Shown: piece by piece, positions 4,637-55,355 of the stretch
Layout: the number at the start of each line of letters is the position of its first letter
Position numbering within the stretch: position 1 is the first letter of the stretch
From: an uncultured Nitrososphaerota archaeon
Lineage (GTDB): Archaea > Thermoproteota > EX4484-205 > JAAOZO01
Direction: 5' to 3'
Assembly: GCA_964408285.1 (NCBI GenBank)
Contig: CAYOYV010000001.1
Coordinates: 32,001-96,000, forward strand
DNA: 64,000 nt
Program-made: the position numbers and the translations under genes
The notes under the pieces: generated by a model
What the model saw: the letters and a program-made list of their open reading frames with translations, nothing else
Told to the model about the DNA's origin: nothing
Database searches by the model: none

Positions 4637-4886
4637 CCTTGGAGCACATGCTAGATTGCACTGCCGATTTAAATCTCAATCCGTCCATTCCCCCAATTGC
4701 TCGGCAGATTCAGTCTCATGTCGGAATACTCCGCGATTTTACGGGACCTTTCACCGGGGGATTCTGACGCATCACGCGCGATGACCGAACTTGACCCTCA
4801 TATCTGGGAATCAAGGCGCGAAAGTAACAGAAAGACATTTTGGGTTCACCGAGAGATAGTTGCGGGCTTGGAGGATTGAGGCAGCC

Positions 4887-5879
4887 ATGGTTGTGAACGG
4901 AAGAGATGTTCCCGGTTTCGATTTTCATGGGCTCCTGTCAGTCCAGTACATCCTATCGAATAGGAGATTCAGGAAGATTATCTTGGAGCCGCCCGATTTC
5001 AATCCTGGGTCTTGGAGAGGCGCTGGGAAAGTACTCCTTGACACTGATGATGGAAGCTTCTGGTTGACCACTAGGCCCCGAAAGGCTCATCCGATTAGGG
5101 GGTATGCTGTCGAGATATATCGATCAGAGGACGGGGAGAATTTCAGCCTAAAGTCAGAACTAGCAAGGGAGTCAGTTGGGTCGATAGCCAACTTGACAGT
5201 CAACAGCATCGAGGGTCAACAGCTCCTAAGGGATCCCTTGACGGGCAAGTACCATTTGTACCTCTCAGTGGATACGCCGCCCCGGGGCTGGGAGACCCTC
5301 CTGCTGAGGAGTGAGGATCCCACAGGGCCTTGGAATGCCGAAGGAGTTGTTCTAAGCCGAGATGCGGCATACGATTCATTGGAGGCGAGGGATGCAACCA
5401 TAGACCTGATCGATGGTCGATATTTCGCGATGTACAAGGCGAATGACGGGAGAAGCGTCAGAATGGCTCTTGCAATCAGCCGCGATGGCATAGTATGGGA
5501 GAAGCATGGAGTTCTGAAGCTAGACGGCATGCCCCAACCTGATTACCTCTTACTCTGTGGCAAGATCTTCCCAGGCACCAGGGGCCCCGTTTTCATCGGA
5601 TCTGAAGGAAAGACTGTCATAGAATCTGCTTCAGTGACGGATACATTGACATCCTATAGACTTGACTACCCGAACCTCAACCTCGAAAGGCTATTCTCAG
5701 GCCGTTGGGAGCCTCTCTCTCCATTCGAGAGGAATGATTACCCGATCCACAGCTACGTCGACATGGTATATGATACATCCAGAGAAAGATTGCTCATATA
5801 TATCGAGGCCATAGACCCTGGGGGCCTGGGATTGAATAAGGAAGTGGACAGAGTACTGCTATACGAAGTGCCTGTCTGA
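4887..5879 (+). CDS. Five-bladed beta-propeller glycoside hydrolase-like protein
   Basis: Repeated blade motifs (YHLYLS, EARDATID, YFAMYKA, LAISRDGIVW); ORF open from 4860. Confidence 0.65.
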   Translation: MVVNGRDVPGFDFHGLLSVQYILSNRRFRKIILEPPDFNPGSWRGAGKVLLDTDDGSFWLTTRPRKAHPIRGYAVEIYRSEDGENFSLKSELARESVGSIANLTVNSIEGQQLLRDPLTGKYHLYLSVDTPPRGWETLLLRSEDPTGPWNAEGVVLSRDAAYDSLEARDATIDLIDGRYFAMYKANDGRSVRMALAISRDGIVWEKHGVLKLDGMPQPDYLLLCGKIFPGTRGPVFIGSEGKTVIESASVTDTLTSYRLDYPNLNLERLFSGRWEPLSPFERNDYPIHSYVDMVYDTSRERLLIYIEAIDPGGLGLNKEVDRVLLYEVPV

Positions 5880-5913
5880 GTTGTCACGCGCGCGAGCGAT
5901 AGGGCTCCAGTCA

Positions 5914-6132
5914 TCAAACCCGTTTCGACCAAGCATCCTTCAGCTCTAGGGCAAAGGCGTCTTCGTCTTTTTCTATTCTCTTTTTCACTTCCTTCCAAGC
6001 GGCCGGACAGTTTTTGTATCTCTTTCTAACAATCCTGTGGATGACCTTGTCTAGCTCCTTCTTGTTGTCACCCGTCACTTCCACGCGTGCTTTGGCGAAC
6101 AAGCTTTGGAGATGCCTAAAATAGCAGGTCAA
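5914..6132 (-). CDS. Small hypothetical protein (72 aa)
   Basis: AAGGTGA RBS before TTG; plausible helical protein (CYFRHL...CPAAWKEVK). Confidence 0.7.
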   Translation of the reverse strand: MTCYFRHLQSLFAKARVEVTGDNKKELDKVIHRIVRKRYKNCPAAWKEVKKRIEKDEDAFALELKDAWSKRV

Positions 6133-6247
6133 TGAGACTCACCTTGTAGAATGAGAGCCAGACGCCCTTCTTAACGATATCGTGTTGCGCGCGCGGTCGG
6201 CAATTCCTTTTATAATCGGCCTTGACCGGCTGTTTCGAACCTTCACG

Positions 6248-7153
6248 ATGAGGGTGAATCTCGCTTGGCTGTATGCGATAACCAAGTATGGATATCCTCC
6301 TTCGTTGTCAAATACATATAACGCGATAGACGATGCAACCAGACTTGGATTCGAGGCGATAGAGCTTGAGGTCTGTAGGGAGCAGAATCTGATTGAGCTG
6401 GAACAGAACAAGGAGAAGTTGAAGAACTACCTCGAGACAAAGCATCTGAAAACTGTCAACGTAGCGGCGATCTTTCCGGAGCTTCTCTCAGGGGATGACA
6501 AATCGAGGGACAAGGGCCTTCGTCTCTTTGCGAGAACAACTGAGCTTGCAAGCTTCTTTGGAGCGCCACTAACGCAGACGGACACCTTCACGCCTCCAGT
6601 TGAATACATCGGAGCTCGACCCTACAGCACGACGATAGCATTTGCTGAAAGATACCGGGTAAGGATACCTTCGGGCTTTTCTTGGAATTCATACTGGAAG
6701 AGAATAGTGGATATCCTGTCCAGATGCGCGGTTATGGCTGATGAACGCCACCTGAAGTTTGCAATCGAGCCCCGTGTGGGAGAGAACGTAAGCAACTCAG
6801 ATCTCATGCTCAGACTGATCGATGAGATAGGAATGGAGAACTTCGGCGCCGTACTTGATGCTGGGCATCTTCACGCACAAAAGGAACTTCTACCCATCTC
6901 AATAGAGAAGCTCAACACGAAGATCCTCTATGTTCATGTATCGGACAATGATGGAAGGGACAATTATCATCGCGCTCCAGGAAAGGGCACCATAGACTGG
7001 GAAGCAGTATTTGAAGGGCTGAGAAAATACGATTTCAAGGGGCATATTGCAGTAGATGTAGGAGGAAAGGACATCGAGGACAGACTTGATCAGGAGGTCC
7101 TTCAAGCGAAAGGCTTCGTCGAGCGGATGGGAAAGAAGTACAGTCTATGGTAG
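6248..7153 (+). CDS. Sugar phosphate isomerase/epimerase (xylose-isomerase-like TIM barrel)
   Basis: GFEAIEL, AIEP, DAGH, HVSDNDG, GKGTIDW motifs; TTTTATAA at about 6207. Confidence 0.88.
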   Translation: MRVNLAWLYAITKYGYPPSLSNTYNAIDDATRLGFEAIELEVCREQNLIELEQNKEKLKNYLETKHLKTVNVAAIFPELLSGDDKSRDKGLRLFARTTELASFFGAPLTQTDTFTPPVEYIGARPYSTTIAFAERYRVRIPSGFSWNSYWKRIVDILSRCAVMADERHLKFAIEPRVGENVSNSDLMLRLIDEIGMENFGAVLDAGHLHAQKELLPISIEKLNTKILYVHVSDNDGRDNYHRAPGKGTIDWEAVFEGLRKYDFKGHIAVDVGGKDIEDRLDQEVLQAKGFVERMGKKYSLW

Positions 7154-7211: not shown

Positions 7212-8177
7212 ATGAAAGCCACCGCGACAGCACATCCGATTCAAGGCCTGATTAAGTACCATGGGCTAAGTGACCCAATCCTGAGAATTCCCTTCCATGA
7301 CAGCATATCAGTCTGTGCGGGTGCTTTGGTTACAACTACCACCGTCGAAACAGATCCGGAGATCGGCGATGATTCGATTGTGGTAAACGGAAGGCAGATG
7401 CTTGGGAGAGACAGAGAACGCGCGGAAATTGTCTTGGGCAAACTCAGATCGATGGCTGGATATTCTGGCCACCTCAAGGTTATGTCGATGAACAGCATTC
7501 GCGAAGGCAAGGGGCTCGGCTTTTCTGCATCTGGATTTGCCGCACTCGGTCTGAGTGCATCGGCGGCCCTCGGCATTGACCTCGATGAAGTGTCCCTATC
7601 CGAGGTGGTCAGATTGGGCGCGGGTTCTGCAACGAGAAGTCTTTCTGGCGCTTTTTCGATATGGTATGCGAACAAAGATGGCAAGTCGTATGCGGAGCAA
7701 ATTGCCAAAGGCGAGGGACTGGATCTGTTGATGATCATCGTGCCAATCCCATCGTCGATTAGAACTGATGAAGCTCATATCGAGGTGCTTAGCTCTCCCC
7801 TTTTCGATGCGAGGCTCAAGCGCGTTCCCGACATGATTGAATCGATGAGAAAATCAATAGCGATGCGCGATATTCCGGCCATTGCAGGGCTTGCCGAGGA
7901 AGACTCGCTAAATCTTCATGCCATAACAATGACTGGAAAATCACACATGGTCCTCTGGGAGCCGGAGACAGTAGGTGTCATCAAGGAGGTCATCAGAATG
8001 CGTGAGGAAGGGATACCCGCTTGGTACTCAATTGACACAGGACCTTCAGTCTTCGTGAACACCTTGAAGCATCGGGCCCAAGAAGTGCAAAGCAGACTCA
8101 TGGAGAAAGTCTCGGGAGAAACGATCCTCAGTGACGTGGGAGATGGGGCCACCCTAGGTGGAAGCCCACTTTTCTGA
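7212..8177 (+). CDS. mvaD: Phosphomevalonate/diphosphomevalonate decarboxylase (haloarchaea/Chloroflexi type)
   Basis: MKATATAHPIQGLIKYHG N-terminus, GHMP motif KGLGFSASGFAAL, RLGAGSATRS, YSIDTGPSVFVN. Confidence 0.9.
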   Translation: MKATATAHPIQGLIKYHGLSDPILRIPFHDSISVCAGALVTTTTVETDPEIGDDSIVVNGRQMLGRDRERAEIVLGKLRSMAGYSGHLKVMSMNSIREGKGLGFSASGFAALGLSASAALGIDLDEVSLSEVVRLGAGSATRSLSGAFSIWYANKDGKSYAEQIAKGEGLDLLMIIVPIPSSIRTDEAHIEVLSSPLFDARLKRVPDMIESMRKSIAMRDIPAIAGLAEEDSLNLHAITMTGKSHMVLWEPETVGVIKEVIRMREEGIPAWYSIDTGPSVFVNTLKHRAQEVQSRLMEKVSGETILSDVGDGATLGGSPLF

Positions 8178-8192: not shown

Positions 8193-8765
8193 CTATGCGA
8201 ACCTATTCCACCACATGATGCTCTCAAGGGGCCTCTTTGGAACATGAAGGGTGCCATTGTCATCAAGCCAGTACTTGACGTTATCGCCTATCATCGCTTC
8301 CGCGATGGATGTCTCGGCAGGATAGCCAAGTGAAACCACAAGGACTATTTCCAGCCCGATGGGAATATTGAGAGCGATTCTTAGCTTGTCCCTGTCAATT
8401 GAGCCAAGGATACATGAACCCAATCCCTCATCGTGAGCGACTAGACTAATGCTCATCGCTGCTATTCCTGCATCATGACCCGGGTCCTTTCTTATCGCTC
8501 TGTCAAGGAGGATTACTATGTAGGCTTTCGGCTTCTCCGTGGGTTCATGACCATAACTAGGGAGATATCCTGCCCATTTCAGCGTTGCAAAAACCCGTTC
8601 AAGTAGATCGGGTTCGTCGATCACGAGGTACTTCAATCCCTGGAGATTCGATCCGCAGGGTGAGAGCCTTGCGGCATCCACACATTTTACAAGGGCCTCT
8701 CGCGGCGCCTCCCTCTGCAAATACTTCCTTATTGTTCTCCTGCCAATGATCCTCTCGTAGATCAT
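8193..8765 (-). CDS. Nitroreductase family protein
   Basis: RRTIRKY, ARLSPCGSNLQ, GLGSCILG, LGYP. Confidence 0.9.
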   Translation of the reverse strand: MIYERIIGRRTIRKYLQREAPREALVKCVDAARLSPCGSNLQGLKYLVIDEPDLLERVFATLKWAGYLPSYGHEPTEKPKAYIVILLDRAIRKDPGHDAGIAAMSISLVAHDEGLGSCILGSIDRDKLRIALNIPIGLEIVLVVSLGYPAETSIAEAMIGDNVKYWLDDNGTLHVPKRPLESIMWWNRFA

Positions 8766-8954
8766 GCTCTGGGAATGTTGTAGGAGCTAAAATGGATTTT
8801 GCTGAGCCAGCCTAAGATGACGGTCGGGCGTCACACGCGTGCAGAATGCTATGGTGAACATGCATCATGCTGGCTTGGAAGGAGAAACGCGCGCTCTTTG
8901 TGCAGGGGAGGCTGCTCTCATGCCCAACGCTTCTGGAATGTGTAAAGAGTGGCA

Positions 8955-9719
8955 TTATCCGATGTTTTCTTCGTCGAGGAAATGGGTTTTGGTCTTGAAA
9001 CGTTTTTCGATCTTCTGTGCTAGGGCCTTGACTCCCGGCACCTCAGACGCGTAATGGCTTGCCAGTATCATGTTTACTCCCAATTCCTTTGCTACGAGCC
9101 TGCCAAACATCAGAGCTTCTCCGGTGACAAAGGTGTTGCAGCGAAGATTCTTTGCCTCATGAATCCATTCAGGGCGGCCTCCCCAGCCTGTCACTACCGC
9201 TATCCCCCCAAGCCGTTTGGATGCCATCCGCACCTGAGGTTTCATCCTAGTGACGCCTTCTAATCTGTGTACGAAATCTCGAAGATTGGTTCCTGAGTGC
9301 CCATAGACCCCGCTGTACTTTCCCGTTTCCGGATCGCGTATCAGCTCCCCTTCCACCTTCAAACCGATGGCAGAAGCAAATGAGGATGCTGTGCCGAAAT
9401 GCTTGGCTTGATCCAGGGCCTTATGGGCGACATACAGAGACAACCCGGAATCCCTCGAGATTCTGTATTTGTCCTCATAAAGAAATCCATCAGTGAACAG
9501 AGAGGCAGGATGATGAGTCACAAGGAGCCCCAGATCTCGTCCAACAGCCTGTCCGATTGTCTGAAGGGATAGGTTGACCCCGAGACCTACTGATTTCACG
9601 GATTGCTTCCCTTCCACCAATAGGCCTTCATGTTCTCTCTCGCTTCGATACTTCTCCATCTCCAGTAGTTCGTCGAGATAACCAGCGATGTCACTCAATC
9701 TCCATGATTGCCCTCTCAT
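8955..9719 (-). CDS. Nif3-like dinuclear metal centre protein
   Basis: VTHHP, YVAHKALD, FVTGE, SHYASE motifs. Confidence 0.88.
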   Translation of the reverse strand: MRGQSWRLSDIAGYLDELLEMEKYRSEREHEGLLVEGKQSVKSVGLGVNLSLQTIGQAVGRDLGLLVTHHPASLFTDGFLYEDKYRISRDSGLSLYVAHKALDQAKHFGTASSFASAIGLKVEGELIRDPETGKYSGVYGHSGTNLRDFVHRLEGVTRMKPQVRMASKRLGGIAVVTGWGGRPEWIHEAKNLRCNTFVTGEALMFGRLVAKELGVNMILASHYASEVPGVKALAQKIEKRFKTKTHFLDEENIG

Positions 9720-16974: not shown

Positions 16975-17263
16975 GGATCATCTTCCTCGTGGGTGCAGCA
17001 AGATGCCGAGTAGCATGTTGCCCTTGCCCATGCCATAATTAGGAGCAGCACAGGAGGCTATTTAAGGGATAGCGAGACTGAATTAGCTCGCCACCGTTTC
17101 ATAGAATGATATGCAAAGATTCTATTCCTCCCCTCGGAGAAGAGGATTTGCATCAATCAACCCAGCGATTGTGCCCCCCGTCCTATCAGAGCCCTCGGGA
17201 TCAGCGGATCGAGGAAATCTTGGCTTCCATTCCTGAGACACGCGCGCGTGTGTTGCGTCCCGA

Positions 17264-20023
17264 TCAGAGAACGTACGCCCCAGAGGCCCAGTTCAGAAGA
17301 CTGTAGAAGAGATAGGTCTGATACCAGTGGCTTTCATGATGTCGCCTGTCCTCGAAATGATAATTGTCCTCAGAGGCTGTCTCCAGTCGGGATCCGATGT
17401 ATATGATCCTTTTCTTAGGGTCCTTCGATATGACAACAGCCGGCGTGCCCTCGATGGTGTCTGGTTGATCCTTAGGAGATGCGCCCCAAATCGCGCACAC
17501 AGCACCCCAATCTTTGGCACTTACCCTCGAAACTCGAAAGCCTGTCTCAGCTTCATACAAAGCCCGTTTTCTCAGAGCAGGACCAAGTAGTACGCCCTCT
17601 GGCTGGTCCTTCAAAGCCAAGTATCGTATAGTCTTGGATAGAAGGTGATTCTTCTCTCCAGATACGGGACAGTTCTTGCCGTGGAACGGTTCGCCCATCC
17701 ACAGAACCCCCGCGCCCAGATTCAGAAACTCGTCTGCAATTGCTCCGTGGGTTTTTGGATCGCAAGCTGCAAGCCAGATAGCGACATATTGGCCCTCCTT
17801 CAGAGCTGATCTTGCCTCCTCCAGATCCTTCAGGAAATAGAGATTCGGATAGGAATGCATTATTTTCTTGTCTATCCCTTCCGCATAGACGTAGAATTTC
17901 GTCGGAAAGACCCTGACCTTGACTCGATCAATTCCGCTCACATCGTCTAATTTCCATCGCATCGGGATATCGACATCGAGGTGTTCCCAGAGTCGGATGT
18001 GATGATTGCATGGCCTCAATTCTAGAGGGATTTTCCTAGCCTCTCCTGATTTCAGATCAAGATTGAATGAGGTCTTGTCAGAGACCCACCCCTGCGGTAG
18101 CTCCAGCGAAAGAGCAAATGAACCAGATTCACCATGATTTCTGACCTCGAGTTCATGCTTTGATACAACACACGGGGACTCTACCATTGGAGGAATGAGC
18201 CTCATGCAAAGTCTATCCCTGGCCTGAAGCAAGAGTGGAAATGAAGGAGCTGCAGTTCCATGAACTCTCACAAGAGGCGTAATCGCATACGCACGATCCT
18301 TCCTGGCAAACATTGGAAGAATTCCGAACCAGAATAGGTCGGTGTTTTCGTCTATCCTCTCGCTCTTCTTCTTGATGATTTTCCATCCCTCGGGAAGGTG
18401 CAGCTGCAGGTCATACTCGACTGGAACGATTCTGCTCACCCTAGCTTCCACTTCGATCAGTTGACCTGGGACAAAGCCGTTGTCCAACGGATCGGTCGGC
18501 GGGGTCTTTCCTCTAAGCCGAAGGCTTAGTTCAACCTGGGGGAAGATTTCCTCGCCGATCAACACGAGCACCCAGGTGATTATCTTCGGGACTTCAAATC
18601 GTATCTTCCGGTCTGCCGTTTCAGTTCGCAATTGCCTCACTCCCAGTTCAGGAGAAGCGAATGTGATTGCTGGAGGCCATTTAATACCAAATCCCGAAGT
18701 GTCCACTTCTATCCTTTGATTCTCCAAAGACGGGACGTTAGGGTCTATATTAAGCACGTGAAGGATGAGCTGTTGGCGGCCTTCGCTCAGGGCCCTTCTG
18801 TTCAATATGGTCCGAAGGGATCTTGGTGGTGAGTCGGGAGTCACGATGTCTTGAGGCACATACACATCGACATATGGGCCATACAGATAGTCCGAGAATC
18901 GCCTTGAGAATCTTATGTAGTCATCTGAAGGGTGACTATGGCTCACATCCGTTCCTTTATCTGCCAATGTTGTAACAAAGGAGAGGTTGAGATATTCCTT
19001 CTCGAACGATTCATATCCATGCCATCCCCACCAAGGGATGTTGCAGGCTCTCATGCTCCTTTCCCTCATGTTCCTATGGAATTCGTCCCAATTGCGAGGA
19101 CTGCCGATCGATTCGCCCATGGAAGTCCATCCGAACCTCCAATCCTCATCTACATACATTCTTGCAATGTTATTCGGGCAGACGACGAAATTCGGATTCC
19201 GCTCTGATAGGTAAGAAGCATCGCAGTATTTGCCAAACGCCTCATCTAGGTGAACATAGTCGAACCCGATCCTTCTGGCGAACTCAAGCTGATCCATCAT
19301 CCACCTGGAGAAATCCATATTCGGAGGGATGGAATCGTTCCACTCCGATGATGAACCTCTAGCTCCCCAAAACCTCTCCCTGCTTCCATGCCAATAGTGG
19401 CCGGCATATTGCCTCATGAACTCGTCCGTCCAATCATCTTCTGAATCAGGAAGCAGAGCATATGTTATGGCCATCATGCCTCCGCTCATGTAGGTGCCAA
19501 CCCTCTTGCCTTCCTCATGGAACTTCTCTATCATTGCTATGCCCTCCGGTGTTGGTCTGCAGTTGCACCTGTACCACAATCCATCTTGACTTTCAGGGAA
19601 GCCCTTCAGCGCCCAATCGCTTCCCGACATGAAGACTACGCCTCTTAGGTCATCAAAGGCCTCCACAGATTCGGTGGCCTGACCACCCACGTAATAATAG
19701 CGAAGCTCCCTGGCCCAATTCGGAAGTCTCAGAGATATGAGTGCGCCCTTGGCCCTCAACAAAGATTGCTTAGCCTCCAGTAGAAGAGATTCTCTGTCAA
19801 TGTTGAAGCCAATGTCGTAGTTCTTCGTTCTGCCCTCGTATCCCCCTTCCCATCCCTTTGTGCCCCTGTACTCCTGTAGGAATCGCTCAGCCTGCTTCAG
19901 CTCACTCCCCACGTCCAAGAAGACATAACCCTCTTCCTCAGACTGCAAGACCTTTCTCTCTATGTCCTCCTTCAAACGCCACAATTCATTCTCTGTCTGC
20001 ATGTGCAGATCGATTGACAACAT
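17264..20023 (-). CDS. Large multidomain glycoside hydrolase-like protein (GH66-like TIM barrel plus beta-sandwich domains)
   Basis: IEKFHEEGKRVGTY...GFDYVHLDE barrel; LHVLN...FASPE...FEVPKIITW beta-sandwich; two LPEGW/LPQGW (NEW3-like) domains. Confidence 0.6.
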   Translation of the reverse strand: MLSIDLHMQTENELWRLKEDIERKVLQSEEEGYVFLDVGSELKQAERFLQEYRGTKGWEGGYEGRTKNYDIGFNIDRESLLLEAKQSLLRAKGALISLRLPNWARELRYYYVGGQATESVEAFDDLRGVVFMSGSDWALKGFPESQDGLWYRCNCRPTPEGIAMIEKFHEEGKRVGTYMSGGMMAITYALLPDSEDDWTDEFMRQYAGHYWHGSRERFWGARGSSSEWNDSIPPNMDFSRWMMDQLEFARRIGFDYVHLDEAFGKYCDASYLSERNPNFVVCPNNIARMYVDEDWRFGWTSMGESIGSPRNWDEFHRNMRERSMRACNIPWWGWHGYESFEKEYLNLSFVTTLADKGTDVSHSHPSDDYIRFSRRFSDYLYGPYVDVYVPQDIVTPDSPPRSLRTILNRRALSEGRQQLILHVLNIDPNVPSLENQRIEVDTSGFGIKWPPAITFASPELGVRQLRTETADRKIRFEVPKIITWVLVLIGEEIFPQVELSLRLRGKTPPTDPLDNGFVPGQLIEVEARVSRIVPVEYDLQLHLPEGWKIIKKKSERIDENTDLFWFGILPMFARKDRAYAITPLVRVHGTAAPSFPLLLQARDRLCMRLIPPMVESPCVVSKHELEVRNHGESGSFALSLELPQGWVSDKTSFNLDLKSGEARKIPLELRPCNHHIRLWEHLDVDIPMRWKLDDVSGIDRVKVRVFPTKFYVYAEGIDKKIMHSYPNLYFLKDLEEARSALKEGQYVAIWLAACDPKTHGAIADEFLNLGAGVLWMGEPFHGKNCPVSGEKNHLLSKTIRYLALKDQPEGVLLGPALRKRALYEAETGFRVSRVSAKDWGAVCAIWGASPKDQPDTIEGTPAVVISKDPKKRIIYIGSRLETASEDNYHFEDRRHHESHWYQTYLFYSLLNWASGAYVL

Positions 20024-26141: not shown

Positions 26142-26212
26142 AGGGATGACCGGCGCTCGGCGCGCTTCAGCAAGCGTGCATGGCAGGTTCGGTATTTTGA
26201 ATCCCTGACGCT

Positions 26213-36471: not shown

Positions 36472-36634
36472 GAATTTCCCGGGACTCCGGACTCCTACAG
36501 CCAAGAACGAACCACGAACAGCATCTTCTAGAATTGAGAAGGTTGCGCATCGAGCTTCATGAAGCTGACAGTGGCTGTTAGGAGGTCATAACTTATTGCT
36601 CAAGCATAAATAATGAACGGTATGCAACTCCATC

Positions 36635-37705: not shown

Positions 37706-37781
37706 TGCAAGGAAACGAGGCCATTATGGTTCGAAAGTCACTTGGTCTATGTCAATCCGGATGCTTTGGTTCATTTCTATT

Positions 37782-38777: not shown

Positions 38778-38924
38778 TCGTCGTCAGGGGCCGTTGCACA
38801 TTAAAGCGTTTCTGTTCGTCTGTGGGGATTCGGTCGGGGGAGCATCAAGTATGGCGAGAATGATTTTTCTCTTACTGCGGAAATCCATATAAGTGGAAAA
38901 GGGCAGTGACCGAGTGCACATGCA

Positions 38925-39710: not shown

Positions 39711-39717
39711 ATTCAGA

Positions 39718-40530
39718 ATGCGAGCGAGACTGGGTTGCCAAACTTACACATGGGAAATGCTGGGCAACAAGTGGACAAGAGGCATCGATGACATCCTAAA
39801 CACGATTTCAGACCTTGGATTTGAGGGGATAGAGGTCTCAGTGAACATGATAGGGGCATATTACCATTCACCAATGGCCTTTCAGGATGCACTATCCCGA
39901 AGGTCTTTGGACCTTTCCGCCTTCGCCCTGAGCAGCCCATATGGATTCAGTGACCCCAAGTTCCGTGAGTTCGAACTGAAAGAGGTGCGAGCTGCTCTGC
40001 AATTTCTTACCTTTTTCCCCGGAGCGATTCTGTCACTAGGCGGTGCCACCTCAAACGAGCAAGATAGGACAAACAGATTGAGGTACGCATGCGATTTCTA
40101 TAACGCTTGTGCGAGACTCGGTTACGAAATGGGAATTGTGGTCGCAGTTCATCCGCATTCGCATCAAGGATCTCTCATAGAGACAGAAGAAGAATACGAG
40201 AATCTCATGAAGTGGACCGATTCAGACTGCCTCAAATGGAATCCTGATACGGGGCACATATCGCGTGGAGGACAGGATCTAGTTGATTGTCTCGGGAGAT
40301 ACAAGTCCCGCATTGCGCACATTCATGCGAAGGATGCTGACAGCCAAGGAAAATGGAGGCCATTAGGAAAAGGCGAGTGTGAATTGAGGGGCATGTTACA
40401 GGTCTTGAAGAATATCGGCTATTCTTCTTGGATCGTCATCGAAGACGAATCGCCTGAAGCAGGCCAAGACCCCAAACGAATCCTGGGGGAAGACCTGAGG
40501 GTGATGAGAGGGCTCGTTGAAATGGCATAG
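39718..40530 (+). CDS. Sugar phosphate isomerase/epimerase (IolE-like)
   Basis: GFEGIE, HPH, PDTGH, HIHAKD, WIVIEDE. Confidence 0.88.
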   Translation: MRARLGCQTYTWEMLGNKWTRGIDDILNTISDLGFEGIEVSVNMIGAYYHSPMAFQDALSRRSLDLSAFALSSPYGFSDPKFREFELKEVRAALQFLTFFPGAILSLGGATSNEQDRTNRLRYACDFYNACARLGYEMGIVVAVHPHSHQGSLIETEEEYENLMKWTDSDCLKWNPDTGHISRGGQDLVDCLGRYKSRIAHIHAKDADSQGKWRPLGKGECELRGMLQVLKNIGYSSWIVIEDESPEAGQDPKRILGEDLRVMRGLVEMA

Positions 40531-40614
40531 ATATTCATCAAAAGTGCGCACTTGGGCTTGGCCCAGCAACCGTTTGATGCAATAGAAGTGAAAGGACTCA
40601 ATCTCGGCATGCCC

Positions 40615-41661
40615 TCACTTCACGGGATGGATGCCACCGAGTTCTGTGATTACGGTTGGGTGGAGGTTCTTGTCGATAGAATACGATCTCTTGGCTTGAC
40701 GAAAATCGTTCTGGACAAGCACAATATCCCTCGTCCTATTCCCTTTGAGATGAAGAAACGTTCCGGTTCCCATCGAAGCTGCGCAGTTGCGGACCGTGGC
40801 GTTCTCAACCTGATCGAATACGATTGCTGGGTTTTTCCCGTCCGCCTTGACCTGCCGCGCGCGCTATTCCCCTGTCTGCCCCGGTCACCACACAATTGTC
40901 AATGGTCACGTTGCGGATGCAATTCATGTTTCGGTCAGAGAACTTTATGGCACTCGACGCCGAAGTGAGCCGGCAATTCGTGACGGTTATATTCTCACAT
41001 TGGAGCGCCGGACCGTACCAGTCCATGGAATAGAAGACGAGAGCGTCATCACCAGTCTCGATGGTGCAATTCGAAATCCTGAGATCCTTGCATCCATCAG
41101 GATCGATTCCATCGGCCCAGACCGCGTCCTTTACGCTCGTGTGGATGTAAACTCCATCGATGACTGTGCGCTGACAACCATATAGGTGCATTGTCCAAGA
41201 GGGCGAATCGAGTAAGGATAAGCCAGAGATTCTGACATCGTTCCAACGTGGCAGGAGGATGAGCTTGCCATATTGATCCGTTTTCGGGAATGAACGTCCG
41301 ATGGACTTACCTAGGGCTATCATGATCTCCCTATTCGGACGAATGAAATCATCCTCATGGTCATCGAGGCGCCATTCGTATTGCGCTTGACCATCAATCG
41401 TACCGCGACCCTCGATCGATATATTCTCAAGGCCATCCCCGAAGATCAGTGCATCTTGGTCAAATGCCTACCGCTTTTTTGCAGAATAGATGGTTGCCCC
41501 TGGCTCAATGTAGAGAGTCACGTGACTACGCAGATGAATCGTGCCGGTCGTGTATTGACCCGGTCGGAAGCGCACGACACCTCCCCCAGACTGAACGCAG
41601 GCTTCGAAGTTCTTCCGGAGATGTGGTTGGGCCGTTTCTTGCCTTCAGATAGCTCTCCCAT
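40615..41661 (-). pseudogene. GH28 (polygalacturonase-like) pseudogene
   Basis: GGGVVRFRPGQYTTGTIHLRSHVTL, in-frame TAG at 41468-41470, WADGIDPD/TGDDA catalytic motifs, then a frame-shifting internal deletion near 40860 joining to a C-terminal piece ending at TGA 40615. Confidence 0.85.
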
Positions 41662-41781
41662 TTCTTGTCGATATGAACGATTTGGAGAGTTGAAAGGTAT
41701 ATCCTTTCTTGATCTGAGTCAAGCGCCCGGCGCGCGATTTGAATTGTGTGGACTATTTCAGAAATTGATTCCCACGTCCTC

Positions 41782-42912
41782 TCATGGTCTGAAAAGCAGG
41801 TCGTGAACGCGGGGCATATACTCCTTCACCGGTATATGCTGAGGACACTTCTCCTCGCAACTTCCGCATGCTGCGCAGGCGCTTGCCCTTTGCTCTTTGG
41901 GCATCCATCTGCTATAGCTCTCTCTACTGACATCCGGCTTGTTATAGGCTATTGCGATGTTATAGAGTTCCAGATTCCGAGGTATATTGACTCCGTTCGG
42001 ACATGGCATGCAGTAACCACACTTAGTGCACTCTATCGGCCAGATTTCTCTGTATTTCTCGTGCACTTTGGCCACAAGACCGAGATCATCCTCTGACAGG
42101 GTACCAACGCCTGATTTCGATGCGCTTTCAATATTCTGTTCGACCTGTTCCATTGTGCTCATTCCGCTAAGTACGACAGAAACCTCCGGCTTGTTCCAGA
42201 GCCATTGAAGTGCCATGTTCACCGGATTCTTGCCTGCCCGATTCCATATTTCCTTCACGGGATCCGGCGGGTTCGTTAGCATCCCTCCGAGAAGGGGCTC
42301 CATGATCACAACCGCAAGTCCCTTCGCTGCCGCGTACTCGAGTCCCTTTGTGCCAGCTTGGACATCCTCGTTTTCGTAGTTGTACTGTATCTGGCAAAAC
42401 GTCCAGTCATGAGAATCTACGATTTTCTTGAACGCTTCGAATCGATCATGGAAGCTGAAGCCAACTCGTCGTAGCTTCCCTTCGGACATCTTCCGATCAA
42501 TCCAATCGAAGACATTTAGCTCCGATAGGCTAACCCATCTCTGTTCGTTGAGATCATGAAGAAGGTAGAAGTCCAGATAGTCAGTTCTCAGCCTTAAGAG
42601 TTGTTCTGCTAGGATTCTGTCCATATCGGCGCGTGATTTTACGACCCAGCTGGGGAGCTTGGTTGCCAATCTTGTCCTCGCCCGATATCCGTCCATCAGG
42701 GCCTTGCCGAGTATGATCTCCGAATTCCCTCCGTGATAGGTGTGGGCAGTGTCGATGTAGTTGACCCCGTGGTCGATGGCATACCTTATCATCTTGATTG
42801 CCTCGGGTTCGTTCACTTTGTTCCAATCATCTGCTATTCTAGGAAGACGCATGCATCCAAAACCCAGAGCAGAGACCTCCCAGTCTAGCTGTCCGAATTT
42901 TCGGTATTTCAT
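41782..42912 (-). CDS. Aldo/keto reductase with C-terminal 4Fe-4S dicluster
   Basis: LGFGCMRLP, DTAHTY, MEPLLGG, CTKCGYCMPCP and CAACGSCEEKCP. Confidence 0.95.
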   Translation of the reverse strand: MKYRKFGQLDWEVSALGFGCMRLPRIADDWNKVNEPEAIKMIRYAIDHGVNYIDTAHTYHGGNSEIILGKALMDGYRARTRLATKLPSWVVKSRADMDRILAEQLLRLRTDYLDFYLLHDLNEQRWVSLSELNVFDWIDRKMSEGKLRRVGFSFHDRFEAFKKIVDSHDWTFCQIQYNYENEDVQAGTKGLEYAAAKGLAVVIMEPLLGGMLTNPPDPVKEIWNRAGKNPVNMALQWLWNKPEVSVVLSGMSTMEQVEQNIESASKSGVGTLSEDDLGLVAKVHEKYREIWPIECTKCGYCMPCPNGVNIPRNLELYNIAIAYNKPDVSRESYSRWMPKEQRASACAACGSCEEKCPQHIPVKEYMPRVHDLLFRP

Positions 42913-43042
42913 ACTGCCTTCCGAGTGAATCCGGATGCTCCTTTATAAATAGAGCCCACTCTCGTCTTCGGGTCGAATCAGGTTTCTCGCTTCTCGAACT
43001 CGATGAGGAGGACTTAAAAGCAAACGGTGCCTGAATGAGGAA

Positions 43043-43870
43043 GTGAAAAACCCCATCTCTGTTTCCAGCGCCCCCATAGCAAAGCTGGGCGGCAAGAAGT
43101 ATTTCGATCTGGCTGGAACGATTGAGGTAATGAAGCGCATTCTCGCTGAATCAGTAGTGGACGGATTCGAGCTGCAGCTGGAACCGGAATGGGACAAGGA
43201 GAATCCTCCCCTGACGGATGGCCAATATGAGGAATGGACAAGGACGCGGAAATACGACGTCGATGATATAGTTGACCTTGTTCGGGAAGAAGGTCTCCCA
43301 ATCCTCTCGGTCCACGGCAGCAGAGACATCGGGAACTACCTATGTGCGACTCGAAGAAAGGACCGCGAAAGGGGGAAACGCCTGATTGGTAATACGGTAC
43401 ACATTGCCAAGAGCCTCGGTGCCAGTATCTGCGTGTTTCATCTTTGGGACACCTGGAGTTCTGCATTCGATGTCGACGGCCTGAGGGCTGCCTTTTCAAG
43501 GGAAATGGACCTATTCCCTGAAGTCAAGGGCTCGGTCGAGAATATACCGACTCATCTGGCAGGTCACACTCCATTCTCCCTGTCGAGGTCATTCGATTTC
43601 CTCACTCTTGATCTGAGATGGGCGAAGATGTACCGAGAGTTGGAAGCCTTTGAGTCGTTAGCTCGGAAGATAGTAAACATCCATCTGCACGCAGAACTAG
43701 GGCCAGGCGGCTGGGCGTTAGATGGTTCAGGTCAGGATTTCCATAGATATCTCGATGTGATCATTGAGAGGTGGCACTATTCAGGGCTTCTCACCGTTGA
43801 GCCCAGAGGAAGCATGGATCCTTCAGCTTTTCATCATTTCGTAGAGGCAATGCGTTCGATCAGAGTCTGA
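43043..43870 (+). CDS. AP-endonuclease-2 / sugar isomerase TIM-barrel protein
   Basis: DGFEL, SVH, VFH, SVENIP, NIHL, TVEP. Confidence 0.75.
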   Translation: MKNPISVSSAPIAKLGGKKYFDLAGTIEVMKRILAESVVDGFELQLEPEWDKENPPLTDGQYEEWTRTRKYDVDDIVDLVREEGLPILSVHGSRDIGNYLCATRRKDRERGKRLIGNTVHIAKSLGASICVFHLWDTWSSAFDVDGLRAAFSREMDLFPEVKGSVENIPTHLAGHTPFSLSRSFDFLTLDLRWAKMYRELEAFESLARKIVNIHLHAELGPGGWALDGSGQDFHRYLDVIIERWHYSGLLTVEPRGSMDPSAFHHFVEAMRSIRV

Positions 43871-43945
43871 AATAGATTCATGGTCCATGAATGGACACTC
43901 ACCCCTCTTCTCGAGGTACTCCGTGCTTGCCGGGATGCCAAGTTG

Positions 43946-45241
43946 CTATTCGTATACTATCGATTCTACTACAAAGAATGGAAATACCGATGCCAGAGAT
44001 ATCATAAGCGATATCGCAAACAAGACTACGCTGGAGATGGATATGCCATTGGAGTCTCCTCTTGACATCCAGTTATCTTGTCTCCATGCGGTCAACCCAG
44101 CATAGATATTGAGGGGAAGCATGACGAATAGACTCAATATGGCTTGCACCGGAAGCCACAAGATTTCAAGCGGTTTCCCATGGTATATAGTCTGCAGTAA
44201 AGCAGTAACCATCGTTGCCCCTATTATGGCTATTATCAACGCTTGCCACCATGCCCAAGCCCACCAATAGAAGGGCAGTCTGAAGAAGAACCAATCAAGT
44301 ATGATGACAGCTGCCAAGACGTATGACCTAGTATAATATGTGAAGCACTTGTAACGGTATGTGAAGGATGGGGATACATTTTCATACAAGTCCTTTAGGA
44401 AGAACTTCGTCCCGCTGCGCCTCCACCTTATCTGTTGTTTGAGGAACTCAGAGAAGCTGTCAGGTGCCCTTGTCAGGATCTTGGCAGTGCTCTGGATCAC
44501 GGTCTTGAACCCCTTCTTAAGAGCCTGTCTGCTCAGGAATCTATCATCGCCGATCATTCCACGCACACCAAGCCATCGCTCGTTGAGGAATTCATCAGAA
44601 ACCGAGAGTAGGAATTCTCGCCGCCAAGCCGCGCACCTACCATCAACAACCACCAATCCCTCATTCAGCCCCATATCGTTTACTATCCTATTCGCCTCAA
44701 TGAGCCTTGACATGGCTGAGGAGATACCTGAGGAACTTGGTGTGGATGTGTGCCATGCAGATACTGCCACGATCTCGGGATCATCAAAGGGCTTAGTTAT
44801 TTCATCGAGGCAGGCCGGCTCGAGAATGACATCCGAATCTATGTTGACGACAATTTCATTCCGGGCTCTTCTGCATCCTTCGACGAGAGCTTGTCTCTTT
44901 CCTCTCCTAGTCTCGCTTCTATATAGCTCGGCGTATGTGCTGGCAATCGCAGCAAGCCTTCCGTCCTTTCCATCGAGACAGACGATTAGCTGGTCTGGAT
45001 TCTGATCAGCGATTGACTTCAGGCATTTCTCAAAAAGCTCATGGTTCTCAGCATAGACTGGAACGACCACTGTGACCTTCCTCTTCCTATCGGACTGATA
45101 GCTTCTGTACTTTCTGCTGTGATACTTGATGAGAACATGTGAGGTCAAGGTGAAGAACATGAAAAAGAAGAAGAGAAGGTGAATATTGTGATAGATGACT
45201 ATGCTCAGAAGCTGGAGGGTCTCAACTATCATATGCTTCAC
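43946..45241 (-). CDS. GT2 hyaluronan-synthase/NodC-like processive glycosyltransferase
   Basis: GKRQAL, IDSD, GRCAAWR, GDDRFLS, QSTA, FLKQQIRW; multiple TM helices. Confidence 0.85.
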   Translation of the reverse strand: MKHMIVETLQLLSIVIYHNIHLLFFFFMFFTLTSHVLIKYHSRKYRSYQSDRKRKVTVVVPVYAENHELFEKCLKSIADQNPDQLIVCLDGKDGRLAAIASTYAELYRSETRRGKRQALVEGCRRARNEIVVNIDSDVILEPACLDEITKPFDDPEIVAVSAWHTSTPSSSGISSAMSRLIEANRIVNDMGLNEGLVVVDGRCAAWRREFLLSVSDEFLNERWLGVRGMIGDDRFLSRQALKKGFKTVIQSTAKILTRAPDSFSEFLKQQIRWRRSGTKFFLKDLYENVSPSFTYRYKCFTYYTRSYVLAAVIILDWFFFRLPFYWWAWAWWQALIIAIIGATMVTALLQTIYHGKPLEILWLPVQAILSLFVMLPLNIYAGLTAWRQDNWMSRGDSNGISISSVVLFAISLMISLASVFPFFVVESIVYE

Positions 45242-48858: not shown

Positions 48859-48946
48859 GGCTCGGTCGACGTTCTGGGCGAAGGGATGGCAAGCTAGATA
48901 GCTGATAAGAGATTTCCAGACGCGCGCCACGGACCTGAAATGGATC

Positions 48947-50026
48947 TTAACATAACCTTCCAGAGACTGGAAGCAATGCTGGGAAAGAGGCGTGGGGTTC
49001 AATCTGATACCAATAGGCGACGCTCGACCAATCATCGGCCCTGTCGTTTCCGTGTCCATGTTCACATGTCACGGCAATTCTCCTCTGAAATGGAATCGGA
49101 TCTTGGATGTGAAATCTGTAGACAGACCATTGATTGCTCTTTCCGGACAGACTTCCCCACTGCCCTTGGTACATGGCGCCGGGAAGCGAAACACCATGAT
49201 ATAGACCGTAGGCAGTATCGCGTACCGGGAATTCATATGAGAAGTTCATGAAATCCTCAGTACCAGTACCATGCAAGCTGGGAGGCCACTTAAGCGTTCC
49301 ATCGTCCTCGATTTCATCATCGACAAATATCATATCATCGCCTTCCCCAAACCAGCCTGGGGAAAGAGCTCGCACGCTCAAAACGCAACCAGCGTATTGA
49401 CCTCGTCCCTTTGCTTCCAAGATCCTGTAATTCCCCGCTGCGCTCGTGTTCTTGATCTCCGAACCATCTAGCGGTTTTGGCATGGCCTTTGTTGGATTCT
49501 CCCTTCTCCACGTGGCGTGAAAACGGCCAAGGTCCTCAGGAATTGAACCGTGTTCCTCGTAGTCGACGTAGAAGTAGTGAACGTATGGGTTCTCGCATTC
49601 ATTCTCCAGTTCAACCTTTGCTTCTTCCTGAAACGGCATGGGGAACCAACAGTTCCTAGCAGGGCGAGTCGGAGAGTCAGCTACATACATCGAAAGGGGG
49701 GCGGAAAAGAAACTACCCACTGCCCCGTGACCTACTCCGAAGAAATCCCCCAAGGGTACTTCCACGCTAGGATCACGTTCACCATCCCAATACATCCTTA
49801 GAAGCACCTTTCGATGGTAATATTCTGAGTCACAACCTCCTCCGAACCACATATGTCGGATGACGCCTGGGCCCTTGATTTGTGCAAAGCATTTCGCTTC
49901 TCCAGGATCAATGACCATGTAGTCTGCATTTCCTCCCGATCGATCATAGCTCGACATCCTCTTGGCTCTGCAATTGCGGAGTTTGGCCAGACTGCCCAAC
50001 GCTCCATAGCCATATGTAAGATCCAT
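48947..50026 (-). CDS. GH172 / DUF2961 family glycoside hydrolase
   Basis: SSYDRSGGNAD, GPGVIRHMW, PLGDFFG, GEGDDMIFVD, GTGTED, SSVAYWYQ; ORF open to 50083. Confidence 0.92.
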   Translation of the reverse strand: MDLTYGYGALGSLAKLRNCRAKRMSSYDRSGGNADYMVIDPGEAKCFAQIKGPGVIRHMWFGGGCDSEYYHRKVLLRMYWDGERDPSVEVPLGDFFGVGHGAVGSFFSAPLSMYVADSPTRPARNCWFPMPFQEEAKVELENECENPYVHYFYVDYEEHGSIPEDLGRFHATWRRENPTKAMPKPLDGSEIKNTSAAGNYRILEAKGRGQYAGCVLSVRALSPGWFGEGDDMIFVDDEIEDDGTLKWPPSLHGTGTEDFMNFSYEFPVRDTAYGLYHGVSLPGAMYQGQWGSLSGKSNQWSVYRFHIQDPIPFQRRIAVTCEHGHGNDRADDWSSVAYWYQIEPHASFPALLPVSGRLC

Positions 50027-50321
50027 GAGTTGGCTTTTGATTATTACTCCAAGCCATAATAAAGTTTGCGAACTGCCATTCAAAGCAACGGATCAAGTAA
50101 ATGCGACCCTGAACTCTCGCGCTTGATGCACACGTTTTGCACAGCTCTGACCCACCTTGGTTGCCCTTCGTCCTGCTTTCCTTTCTCGGTAACGGATCAA
50201 TCTGAGACGAAGCGCCAGCACCACCGCGCGCACCAACTGCCGTGCTAGAGCTTATCAGGAAGTAGAATACCAATTGCTTATAGGCTTAGGAACGTAAGTC
50301 CAGCTTGGTCGGCAGAATTAG

Positions 50322-53707: not shown

Positions 53708-54057
53708 TCTCTTCGAGAGGTCCCCAGCATTCCCTTGTAACTTGCATTTTCCACATGCAGGACTATCTATCATTTCTACTAAGCAGACTTCACCTGTGCA
53801 CAATTGGCGTTCTTGTTGATGATCCTTGAAATGACTGCTTCGGAGCTCTCCTATGGCAATGTGGCCCAAGGGCCATCAACATGTTATAGACTAGGGCTCA
53901 CGGTTTTTTTCTTTTGCAGCCCTTCAGGGACCGTCGATTCGGGCCAAAATGAAACAGAGGGAGATTCTTGGCCGAACTTTAGCAATTCAATTAGCACAGT
54001 TGGTGTTCTCCTTTAGAGTAATAGACTAATCTTCGCTGGTTCTCCTGAAGCTTTGAA

Positions 54058-54681
54058 ATGGTATTCGGATTCCTAAGAAAGAAGGAACAGAAACCTGTTG
54101 CCCCGATCACGAACCAGTATGACTACCGAGCAAAGATCCAAGAGATCTCGATAAAAATGAGGATTCTGTCGGAGAAACTAGAGCAAAACGAGGCCAGACT
54201 CCAGGAGAAAAGCAAAAGACTGTTCGATAAAGTAGTAAGGGCTGAGGCGCTGAAGGACAGAGAGAAGGCGGCAATATATGCAGATGAAATCGTGCAAGTA
54301 AGGAAAGTCGCGAAGACGGTTTGGATAGGTGTAGCTGCCCTCGAGAAGGTGACGATGAGACTCGACACTGTCAGATCGGCAATGGAGGTGAAGGACCTCC
54401 TCACTTCGCCTGAACTGGGTGTACTGAAGCCCCTATCTGAAACACTGAGAGGCGTGATGCCTGAAGTGTCACTCGAACTGGGCAAGCTCAACGAAGGCAT
54501 GGAGGAGATTGCCATGTCATTCGGAACCATGGGTGACCAAGCATACATCCCAGAGGAAAGCGACGAAGAAGTACAAGCCATACTCCGTCAAGCTTCAGAA
54601 GTGGCGAGCCAGAGAATGAAGAGCGCATTCCCAGACCTGCCCAATCCGATGAGTGAGAAGGAGAGCTCGTACAGATTCTGA
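54058..54681 (+). CDS. cdvB: ESCRT-III / CdvB-like (Snf7 family) protein
   Basis: LFDKVVRA...AAIYADEIVQVRK...LEKVTMRLDT...VMPEVSLEL core; C-terminal FPDLP MIM2-like motif. Confidence 0.88.
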   Translation: MVFGFLRKKEQKPVAPITNQYDYRAKIQEISIKMRILSEKLEQNEARLQEKSKRLFDKVVRAEALKDREKAAIYADEIVQVRKVAKTVWIGVAALEKVTMRLDTVRSAMEVKDLLTSPELGVLKPLSETLRGVMPEVSLELGKLNEGMEEIAMSFGTMGDQAYIPEESDEEVQAILRQASEVASQRMKSAFPDLPNPMSEKESSYRF

Positions 54682-54847
54682 TCTGTCTTCACGCAGTTGA
54701 GAGACCTTCTGAGTGTGCCCAGGCACTCATCCTACGCGTTGCGATACTCCCTGATAGTGCGATAGCTCAGCTCTCGCATTATCCCATTGGCGCTTTCGTA
54801 ACCCGGCCGGGAAGGGATTGGTCCTGAACTTGGAACAGATGTCTCCT

Positions 54848-55282
54848 TCAGGGACAGAAGACACATTTGCCCTGCCTCTCTTGTTCCGAGATCCATTGCT
54901 CTAGTCCGACTTCCCTCATTCTTTTCGAGTTCTCTACTGTTCTCCTATGATGGGTAATGCCATCTTCCGCAAATTCCATCAATAATGAGCAAGGAAAATC
55001 AGCACATTCGAAGCAATGCTCGACATTCTTGCTCTTGGCGCATAGCATCATCCTGCAATCTGAGCTCCAGTGTCTCTCGAAGCGTCCCCTGCAACCATCG
55101 CATCTTACCTGCTCTGGGTTGATTTTTTCCTTCCGTTCGCTGAGGAACCAAGCAACAATCTCGTCTCTCATCTCTACGTTTCCGTGCCCTGCCTCGTATA
55201 TGTCGCATTTGGCGCAATTGAGACCGCAGTAGGAAATCAACCAGCCCTTCCGCCCTACATGATCCATGATCCTGTTCACCAT
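54848..55282 (-). CDS. DUF3795 cysteine-rich protein
   Basis: YCGLNCAKC, CDGC, CA...HCFECADFPC. Confidence 0.88.
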   Translation of the reverse strand: MVNRIMDHVGRKGWLISYCGLNCAKCDIYEAGHGNVEMRDEIVAWFLSERKEKINPEQVRCDGCRGRFERHWSSDCRMMLCAKSKNVEHCFECADFPCSLLMEFAEDGITHHRRTVENSKRMREVGLEQWISEQERQGKCVFCP

Positions 55283-55355
55283 CGTGCCTCTAGGATCTGA
55301 CGCCTTCTAGCAATTCGGGCGACCTGGTCCTTCAGTGCTCGTGGAACACGCGCGT

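Follow-up and report, generated by a model that had tools for sequence, protein, structure and literature searches.

The 64,000-nucleotide stretch analyzed here (the window) stems from contig 1 of an assembly of 1.82 Mb (46 contigs, ∼49.5% G+C, 93.7% complete) and belongs to an uncultured member of the Bathyarchaeia that is represented by a metagenome-assembled genome (MAG) from sediment. It is interspersed with short, strictly alternating tracts of C and G, the (CG)n runs, which are counted below from 6 bases upwards unless another length is stated. These runs are in excess in intergenic DNA, the excess is specific to CG, their positions follow a defined profile relative to stop and start codons, they are not conserved between congeneric genomes, and they are present at some deletion joints. 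On balance, we favor the interpretation that the runs are short filler tracts written in when the ends left by a double-strand break, a deletion, or a replacement are rejoined.

Genes were called with a codon-usage score made for this analysis, which yielded 1667 genes covering 87% of the genome, and the 13% outside called genes was taken as intergenic DNA. Genome-wide, we counted 406 runs, 185 of them intergenic, corresponding to 0.78 per kb of intergenic versus 0.14 per kb of coding DNA. The hexamer CGCGCG occurs 203 times in intergenic DNA, where first-, second-, and third-order Markov models predict 43.1, 52.3, and 96.3 occurrences, respectively, and (CG)4 occurs 57 times versus 2.5 expected. 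This excess is a true surplus of the spacers, because coding DNA is not depleted. Genes contain CGCGCG 159 times versus 168.6 expected, and the sum of CGCGCG and GCGCGC in genes (334) compares with 275 ± 18 when synonymous codons are shuffled and 296 ± 21 when codons are permuted. With coding counts that equal or exceed the Markov and codon-shuffle expectations, codon-driven avoidance of CpG is ruled out as the source of the difference, and the intergenic enrichment that an earlier reading of the window, made from its letters alone (the sequence-only reading), had noticed by eye survives the codon correction. Within the window itself, CGCGCG occurs 22 times versus 7.9 ± 2.8 in dinucleotide shuffles, none of which reaches 22 in 100 trials; GCGCGC alone is without significance there (13 versus 9.4, a count of 13 being reached by 19 of 100 shuffles).

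The surplus is limited to a single type of dinucleotide repeat. In spacers, (CG)3 is found at 4.7 times and (GC)3 at 3.6 times the expected frequency, as opposed to 0.96 and 0.92 times in genes. Repeats of the types (AT), (AC), and (AG) show no intergenic-specific excess: (AC), (AG), and related repeats do not exceed expectation, and the increase in (AT) is of equal size in genes and spacers. When all 2080 strand-symmetric hexamers are ranked by intergenic enrichment, CGCGCG takes the fourth and GCGCGC the seventh place, the other top words being TATA-like. The words most enriched in spacers (TTTAAA, 19-fold, followed by ATTTAA, TTAAAA, and TAAATA) are likely to mirror the consensus of the TATA box in this lineage.

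The runs do not result from faulty assembly, because identical sequence is found in an independent Joint Genome Institute (JGI) contig and in the contigs of four sequencing runs. The JGI contig, which was the only close relative returned by a metagenome scan (all other matches were at most 69% identical), stems from the same strain and is 99.87% identical, and none of its 6 substitutions falls on a run. The contigs of the four sequencing runs differ by substitutions and by the loss of one base at 34639; at the CG runs, neither joints nor loose ends were found. Two joints, at 35247 and 35822, come from single low-depth contigs and lie inside a gene.

Runs occur in all three types of spacers, namely at 0.81 per kb in tandem spacers (84 runs in 735 spacers), 0.98 per kb in convergent spacers (36 in 275), and 0.72 per kb in divergent spacers (44 in 292); 147 of 1302 spacers contain a run. 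Calculated per available base, run density amounts to 1.3–2.9 per kb within 30 nt downstream of stop codons and 0.15–0.5 per kb in the 40 nt before start codons. It reaches 1–1.9 per kb between 40 and 100 nt ahead of starts, immediately upstream of the TATA zone, and is 0.4–0.7 per kb deep in long spacers. Conserved flanks are not apparent, base frequencies being flat at positions −15 to −2 over the 185 intergenic runs. A palindromic extension is absent in 125 of these 185; 60 are extended by one base pair, and 25 of the 60 extend further versus ∼15 expected, which is a modest excess.

The runs are also strongly clustered along the genome (chi-square 256 with 88 degrees of freedom in 20-kb bins), and 33 genes have a run on both sides versus 12.3 expected. 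Dense patches are located on contig 2 (C2:190–200 kb), on contigs C19, C20, and C21, and at the beginnings of C7 and C12. They are composed of single-gene accessory units such as toxin-antitoxin pairs, methyltransferases, GNAT enzymes, glycosidases, nitroreductases, and transporters. Gene orientation in these patches is mixed, attC-like flanks were not found, and no integrase or transposase was detected among 87 proteins scanned there (96 genes called; the integrase family was not searched genome-wide). A clustered regularly interspaced short palindromic repeat (CRISPR) array or a repeat family behind the patches is ruled out by the unique flanks. Genes flanked by runs do not show a foreign composition (equal G+C content at third codon positions; codon score marginally lower, 0.145 versus 0.155, p = 0.002). 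Self-similarity of the genome is limited to 18 repeat pairs, and 2 of 32 homology ends abut a run, too few to weigh. A ∼60-nt repeat is present in two inverted copies that bracket ∼2.9 kb at the end of contig 2; their alternating-GC cores of 8 and 10 bases (C2:197219–197226 and C2:200102–200111) are flanked by GATA...TATC.

The most direct view of a run at a deletion joint within the window is provided by a GH28-like pseudogene (40624–41644, minus strand), for which a deletion junction at 40856–40864 had already been suspected and is confirmed here by alignment to intact homologues of 542–554 amino acids. The pseudogene aligns to these in two pieces. Its N-terminal part (40865–41644, minus strand) corresponds to homologue residues 40 to ∼308 at 64% identity, and its C-terminal part (40624–40855, minus strand), which is in another frame, corresponds to residues ∼464–541, with ∼150 residues (codons) absent between the two. 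The run CGCGCGCGC (40856–40864) occupies this internal joint. Read from the alignment, its first three and last two bases are possibly native codons, and ∼4 of the 9 bases fit neither flank. The joint is also present in a contig of one of the four sequencing runs (X3). The pseudogene further contains an in-frame TAG (41468–41470, minus strand) that represents a strain difference, as position 41470 is T instead of A in sequencing runs X2, X3, and X4, changing the codon to AAG. The deletion is older than this nonsense change, because X3 has the joint but reads AAG.

Elsewhere in the genome, a 67%-identical C-terminal remnant of a 1074-amino acid paralogue ends at the base adjoining the run C6:92962–92970. 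Truncated homology was also sought systematically by blastx against a database of 5,242 proteins, comparing all 406 runs with 812 class-matched control sites and counting homology that ends at most 12 nt away. At an identity of at least 45%, such ends were found at 4 of 406 runs and at 1 of 812 controls, and an excess at runs is seen only at this strictest cut-off.

As the genome studied here (G000) has no close relative (none of the 40 relatives compared, G001–G040, is of the same genus, giving 41 genomes in all), we used congeneric genomes from another family of the same order, which are 80–97% identical to each other. A run-rich stretch of G016 was aligned with five, later seven, congeners, and 18 junctions were examined at which one genome is without at least 100 bases that are present in another. 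One of these, K1, whose short allele contains a gap of 121 nt, did not pass the 40-nt screen used in the script and was judged by hand. At 4 of the 18 junctions, a pure alternating-CG tract sits exactly at the joint of the short allele, and the long allele, which comes from another species and not from the true ancestor, has no tract at either breakpoint. The filler is CGCGC at a deletion of 1.75–3.1 kb whose long form is found in four genomes, GCGCGC at a deletion of 5.4 kb, GCGCGCGC at a deletion of 688 nt, and CGCGCG at a deletion of 795 nt with flank identities of 94% and 90%. At 2 of the 18, a run lies within or at the edge of a longer unalignable filler, and 2 are doubtful; fillers of other sequence, 11–12 nt long, were seen at 2 junctions. 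An intergenic position has a 2.9% probability (pooled; 5.5% in the densest piece) of being at most 10 nt away from a run of at least 5 bases. For 4 of 17 junctions, the binomial tail amounts to 1.3 × 10^−3, which the recount to 18 changes little. Ordinary genes were lost with these segments, namely those for an aldo-keto reductase, a GNAT enzyme, an Ig-domain protein, and an M20 peptidase, and neither a transposase nor an integrase was found in the segments lost in G016. A stretch of G021:C12 that reads as a long run of N adjoins one of the junctions examined.

Conservation of individual runs in this set is low. The 24.9-kb syntenic stretch of G016 is 76% aligned, and 6 of its 10 runs fall outside the aligned blocks, all of them at most 48 nt from a block edge. 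Among the 4 aligned runs, one is matched near-identically in G021; for a second, G021 has a run that lies ∼4 nt off by eye and opposite a gap in the blastn alignment. The two genomes carry 6 (G016) and 8 (G021) CG bases at nearly the same position. One orthologous spacer contains 2, 1, 0, 0, 0, and 0 runs in six genomes. We lean toward the view that runs are young, being written at rearrangement joints and decaying afterwards.

At a larger scale, the trait is unevenly distributed among archaea. No intergenic run was found in 58 of 68 thermosome-anchored loci of at least 8 kb from diverse archaea, and loci with several are Bathyarchaeia contigs, such as L033 with 8. Thirty-one metagenome contigs (494 kb, ∼43% G+C) with a gene for a decarboxylase that is 59–67% identical to that of the window contain 39 intergenic runs and 32 in open reading frames (ORFs), or 0.45 versus 0.08 per kb. 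In 100-kb samples, 11 intergenic and 5 ORF runs were counted in G012 and 12 and 6 in G016, both from the other family of the same order, and the intergenic bias is absent from samples of G001, G002, G003, G006, and G010. Whole-genome counts of (CG)4/(GC)4 are 80/54 in G000. In one genus of the other family they extend from 132/339 (G008), 88/229 (G012), and 38/145 to 0/1 (G010) and 0/0 (G015). The trait is patchy even between congeners, with (GC)4 counts that span 339 to 0 at similar G+C. The phase of the tract is lineage-specific as well: CGCGCGCG outnumbers GCGCGCGC in G000 (80 versus 54) and in G002 (30 versus 15), whereas GCGCGCGC exceeds CGCGCGCG 2- to 5-fold in the genus of G008, G012, G014, G016, and G021.

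We propose that such joints could arise by tailing and annealing. Broken ends would gain an alternating C/G tail, or a polymerase would slip repeatedly on a CG microhomology. Because alternating CG is self-complementary, tails on any two ends could anneal, whereupon the joint would be filled and ligated, leaving 5–11 bases of alternating CG between sequences that formerly were not neighbors. Joints in needed genes or promoters would be removed by selection, and tracts would pile up behind stop codons, upstream of promoters, and in pseudogenes; they would be densest in accessory-gene regions that tolerate rearrangement. Later, the tracts would gain or lose single CG units and degenerate through point mutations. 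Filler synthesis with a self-complementary tail would account for the defined sequence and short length of the filler, for the occasional palindromic extension, and for length changes by CG units, and the position profile near stops and promoter edges would follow from repeated deletion combined with the selective loss of joints that fall in genes and promoters. The sequence-only reading had called the runs scars or targets of a break or recombination process. The interpretation as scars is strengthened by the GH28 joint, the C6 remnant, and the 4 of 18 junctions; that as targets is not supported, the intact alleles of these four junctions having no tract.

Several observations weigh against the interpretation as repair filler. 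The syntenic stretch of G016 was picked for its richness in runs and thus carries a selection bias, and 10 of the 18 junctions have no CG filler but clean, microhomology, or other-filler joints. In the truncation test, no excess is seen at an identity of at least 35% (6 of 406 runs, 6 of 812 controls) or at least 30% (8 of 406 runs, 15 of 812 controls). In the window, for which no close relative exists, a direct link to a deletion is seen for 1 of 14 non-genic runs (40856). Fifty-five of the 68 stop-to-stop fragments around these runs were scanned against Pfam (13 short overlapping ones were dropped), and a gene remnant was detectable by Pfam in none of the 11 run-bearing spacers. Ongoing activity at runs was likewise not seen: the contigs of the four sequencing runs, which hide rare variants, are free of length changes and structural variants at all runs in 24000–43999. 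Candidate enzymes were not found, either. Ku (PF02735) was detected in the Bacillus subtilis control and in 0 of 41 genomes including G000, and the palm domain of PolX (PF14792) has no match in G000; PolX matches in run-rich genomes are sub-threshold and lie in ORFs of 103–197 amino acids, which are small nucleotidyltransferases. Prim-Pol is found in 3 of 41 genomes without association with runs, and reverse transcriptase in none of the 41. Finally, the orderly position profile would equally fit a selected boundary element. Most runs of the window are presumably linked to repair events, judging from the statistical signature that they share and from the relatives.

That boundary element is the rival hardest to exclude, because it predicts the same placement. 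It would consist of Z-DNA-prone or protein-bound sites between transcription units that, for instance, absorb supercoils between a terminator and the next promoter, with selection keeping the runs although their positions turn over fast. Orderly placement, with peaks 0–30 nt after stops and 40–100 nt before starts and avoidance of the last 40 nt, is what such an element would show, as are the presence of runs in all three spacer types and the modest excess of palindromic extension (25 of 60 versus ∼15 expected). Even so, we regard it as unlikely. Only 147 of 1302 spacers would be equipped with the element, orthologous spacers contain 2, 1, or 0 runs depending on the congener, 1–2 of 10 runs are shared, and some congeners are nearly free of runs (G010, 0/1; G015, 0/0). 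Moreover, the flanks hold no information, and one run sits at a joint inside a dead GH28 gene. The Z-DNA or protein-binding site that the sequence-only reading had named as an alternative is thereby weakened by non-conservation between congeners, yet we keep it as a rival.

In a second alternative, pre-existing (CG)n tracts, prone to Z-DNA or other non-B structures, would act as fragile sites that provoke breaks, the tract surviving at the joint as a target and not as a product. Alternating CG tracts induce breaks and deletions in other organisms, the runs described here coincide with joints, and at 1 of the 18 junctions a CGCGC is found 3 nt from the breakpoint in both alleles and thus existed beforehand. 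We nevertheless consider fragile sites quite improbable, as the long alleles at the 4 clean junctions have no CG tract at their breakpoints (for one junction in two independent genomes), and as the origin of the runs and their 4.7-fold surplus would be left unexplained.

Plain microsatellite slippage would require that CG seeds grow longer wherever DNA is unconstrained and are removed from genes, where two-base changes shift the frame. The lengths of intergenic runs are indeed distributed roughly geometrically (185 of at least 6, 54 of at least 8, and 14 of at least 10 nt), the two copies of the repeat on contig 2 carry 8 and 10 bases, and G016 and G021 differ by one CG unit (6 and 8 bases) at nearly the same place. 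However, expansion is confined to CG among the dinucleotide repeats, runs appear where the other allele has no CG seed, length polymorphism was not seen in the contigs of the four sequencing runs, in which rare variants would be hidden, and congeners of similar G+C span 339 to 0, which leaves slippage a very doubtful explanation.

A gene for CGCG-specific modification, to be expected if the runs were methylation targets, was sought as the sequence-only reading had suggested, and no C5 cytosine methylase (PF00145) was found in G000 or in the run-rich G008, G012, G014, G016, and G021 (N4/N6 methylases were outside the search); the family is present in the run-poor G019 and G022. A restriction-modification or methylation target, or the footprint of a mobile element or integron-like cassette system, would suit the patchy distribution between congeners and the dense patches of single-gene units with typical cassette-type functions, but is highly improbable given that the run-rich genomes have no C5 methylase, that a restriction target is expected to be depleted and not enriched, that neither the 87 dense-patch proteins nor the lost segments of G016 include an integrase or transposase, and that the patches show mixed gene orientation and no attC-like flanks.

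The repair filler proposed here resembles the filler known from end joining by TdT, Pol mu, and Pol lambda in classical nonhomologous end joining (NHEJ), by Pol theta in alternative end joining, and by the LigD polymerase in bacteria. In both cases, a few extra bases that are absent from both parental flanks are located exactly at a deletion joint, and joints with and without filler coexist, some with microhomology instead. In contrast to NHEJ-type filler, which is random or locally copied, the filler at the four clean joints is strictly alternating, self-complementary CG. In addition, the host is an archaeon, Ku is found in 0 of 41 genomes, a true PolX was not found in run-rich genomes, and the trait is on in some congeners and off in others.

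Z-DNA-forming CG tracts that act as hotspots of breaks and deletions share the sequence and the association with deletion end points. Here, however, the tract is absent from the undeleted alleles in four clean cases and therefore looks like the product of the event and not its cause. Prokaryotic microsatellites subject to slipped-strand mispairing are similar in that lengths differ by single CG units between copies and species, whereas the present runs involve one dinucleotide type, only outside genes, and arise de novo at joints. Repeats of the repetitive extragenic palindrome (REP) and bacterial interspersed mosaic element (BIME) type are likewise short, palindromic, restricted to spacers, and often placed just behind stop codons, but the runs have no conserved sequence beyond the CG core, no family structure, and no conservation in orthologous spacers. 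A family of repeats like REP or like miniature inverted-repeat transposable elements (MITEs) was rejected, as copies are not alignable beyond the short core and the flanks are flat in 185 runs.

In total, the window contains 19 alternating-CG runs of 6–9 bases. The 17 sites listed in the sequence-only reading are all present at the right coordinates (for the palindrome start given as 17238, the run itself is at 17241, and the sites given as 29161 and 55346 are the runs 29167 and 55349), and two runs, 32349 and 59578, had been missed. By the gene calls, 9 runs are in spacers and 10 in ORFs, but 5 of the latter (6187, 29167, 32349, 32463, and 40856) are not convincingly coding. Solid genes hold the other five (7419, 21715, 33034, 36337, and 59578); the four runs previously assigned to coding DNA thus all lie in solid genes, and 59578 adds a fifth. 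The CGCGCG at 7419–7424 (plus strand), inside an intact diphosphomevalonate-decarboxylase-like gene, is ordinary coding sequence and outside the phenomenon. No Rfam match at the gathering score was found in the whole window.

Several runs closely follow stop codons. The run CGCGCGCG at 5887–5894 begins 7 nt past the stop of gene 4860–5879, in a convergent spacer shared with a small ORF (5914–6132), and another CGCGCGCG (17241–17248), 15 nt past the stop of 17264–20023 (minus strand), forms the core of a 14-nt palindrome (17238–17251). The GCGCGC at 26160–26165 is located in a convergent spacer, 18 and 47 nt past two stops, and the CGCGCGC at 48921–48927, also in a convergent spacer, is 19 nt past the stop of 48947–50083 (minus strand). 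At 55349–55354, a CGCGCG lies 1 nt past the stop of 55356–55976 (minus strand) and 66 nt upstream of the start of 54848–55282 (minus strand). The CGCGCGC at 8888–8894, which is identical in the independent JGI contig of the same strain, occupies a tandem spacer, 60 nt past the stop of 8955–9719 (minus strand) and 122 nt upstream of the start of 8193–8765 (minus strand). The GCGCGCG at 41730–41736 is 45 nt past the stop of 41782–42912 (minus strand) and sits where the first codons and the promoter of the GH28 pseudogene would be expected; it may be linked to a 5′ truncation of that pseudogene.

Upstream of genes, CGCGCG at 4775–4780 is found in a divergent spacer, 138 and 79 nt from two called starts, and CGCGCGC at 50225–50231 in another, 141 and 90 nt from two starts. 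The run GCGCGCGCG (6187–6195) lies 14 nt upstream of a TATA-like box (6209–6216). The longest ORF here begins at 6182, but the run is intergenic, 52 nt upstream of the likely ATG (6248) of a gene with an AP_endonuc_2 fold.

The ORFs that hold 29167, 32349, and 32463 are weak, with codon scores of 6.6–8.7. The GCGCGCG at 29167–29173 is 50 nt past the stop of 28572–29117, within the weak ORF 29114–29530 (plus strand); downstream of the run, this ORF has a marginal match to a GIY-YIG nuclease domain (23.5 bits versus a cut-off of 22.6). The CGCGCG at 32349–32354 and the GCGCGCG at 32463–32469 share a convergent spacer of 310 nt (32194–32503), and the fragments over them match no Pfam family. The run at 32463 had been taken for the end of a hydrolase remnant. 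This could not be confirmed: no recognizable remnant lies between it and the BNR-like gene 31114–32193, which reaches the native C terminus (the last residue) of a 67%-identical homologue. At its other end, this BNR/sialidase-like gene (plus strand) has ∼60 N-terminal residues fewer than its 67%-identical homologue in G004 (419 amino acids), which may be due to a different start or to a 5′ truncation.

Genes of the window include a thermosome, a TackOD1 domain protein, and a decarboxylase of the mevalonate pathway (MVD), and the best relatives of the thermosome are found in Bathyarchaeia MAGs at 56–68% identity. At ∼60–65% protein identity, the neighborhoods of the mevalonate decarboxylase and thermosome genes have a scrambled gene order. 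The thermosome is within 6 kb of an MVD homologue in 5 of 44 loci, and in 120 related loci (1.78 Mb), none of the window's neighboring gene pairs is conserved, whether or not they contain a run. The ideas that the runs shuffle single genes and that operons are nearly absent found no support here; overlapping gene pairs occur in the window (e.g. 55356–57534).

As a tentative extension of the repair-filler interpretation, some Bathyarchaeia might possess a dedicated form of end joining, in which a putative enzyme would add an alternating, self-complementary C/G tail to any free 3′ end. Any two ends might then become cohesive and could be ligated without Ku or homology. The enzyme or its specificity would possibly differ by lineage (C-first here, G-first in the other family), and the system might have been gained or lost repeatedly among congeners, driving gene loss and the turnover of gene order. 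A full-text search, taken as a surface look at the literature, found no publications on tracts of alternating CG in the spacers or at the deletion joints of archaea.

As probable scars, the runs point to a repair process that has not yet been described, and how Ku-less archaea rejoin broken chromosomes is poorly known. A junction signature that is defined by its sequence would provide a natural tracer of rejoining events in the genomes of organisms that cannot be cultured. It would date and locate deletions, mark the joints of pseudogenes, and help to explain scrambled gene order. If a specific enzyme writes the tract, it would be a polymerase that yields a defined product by slippage or without a template, and would be of technical interest. 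Because the trait differs sharply between congeners, comparative genomics could find its gene.

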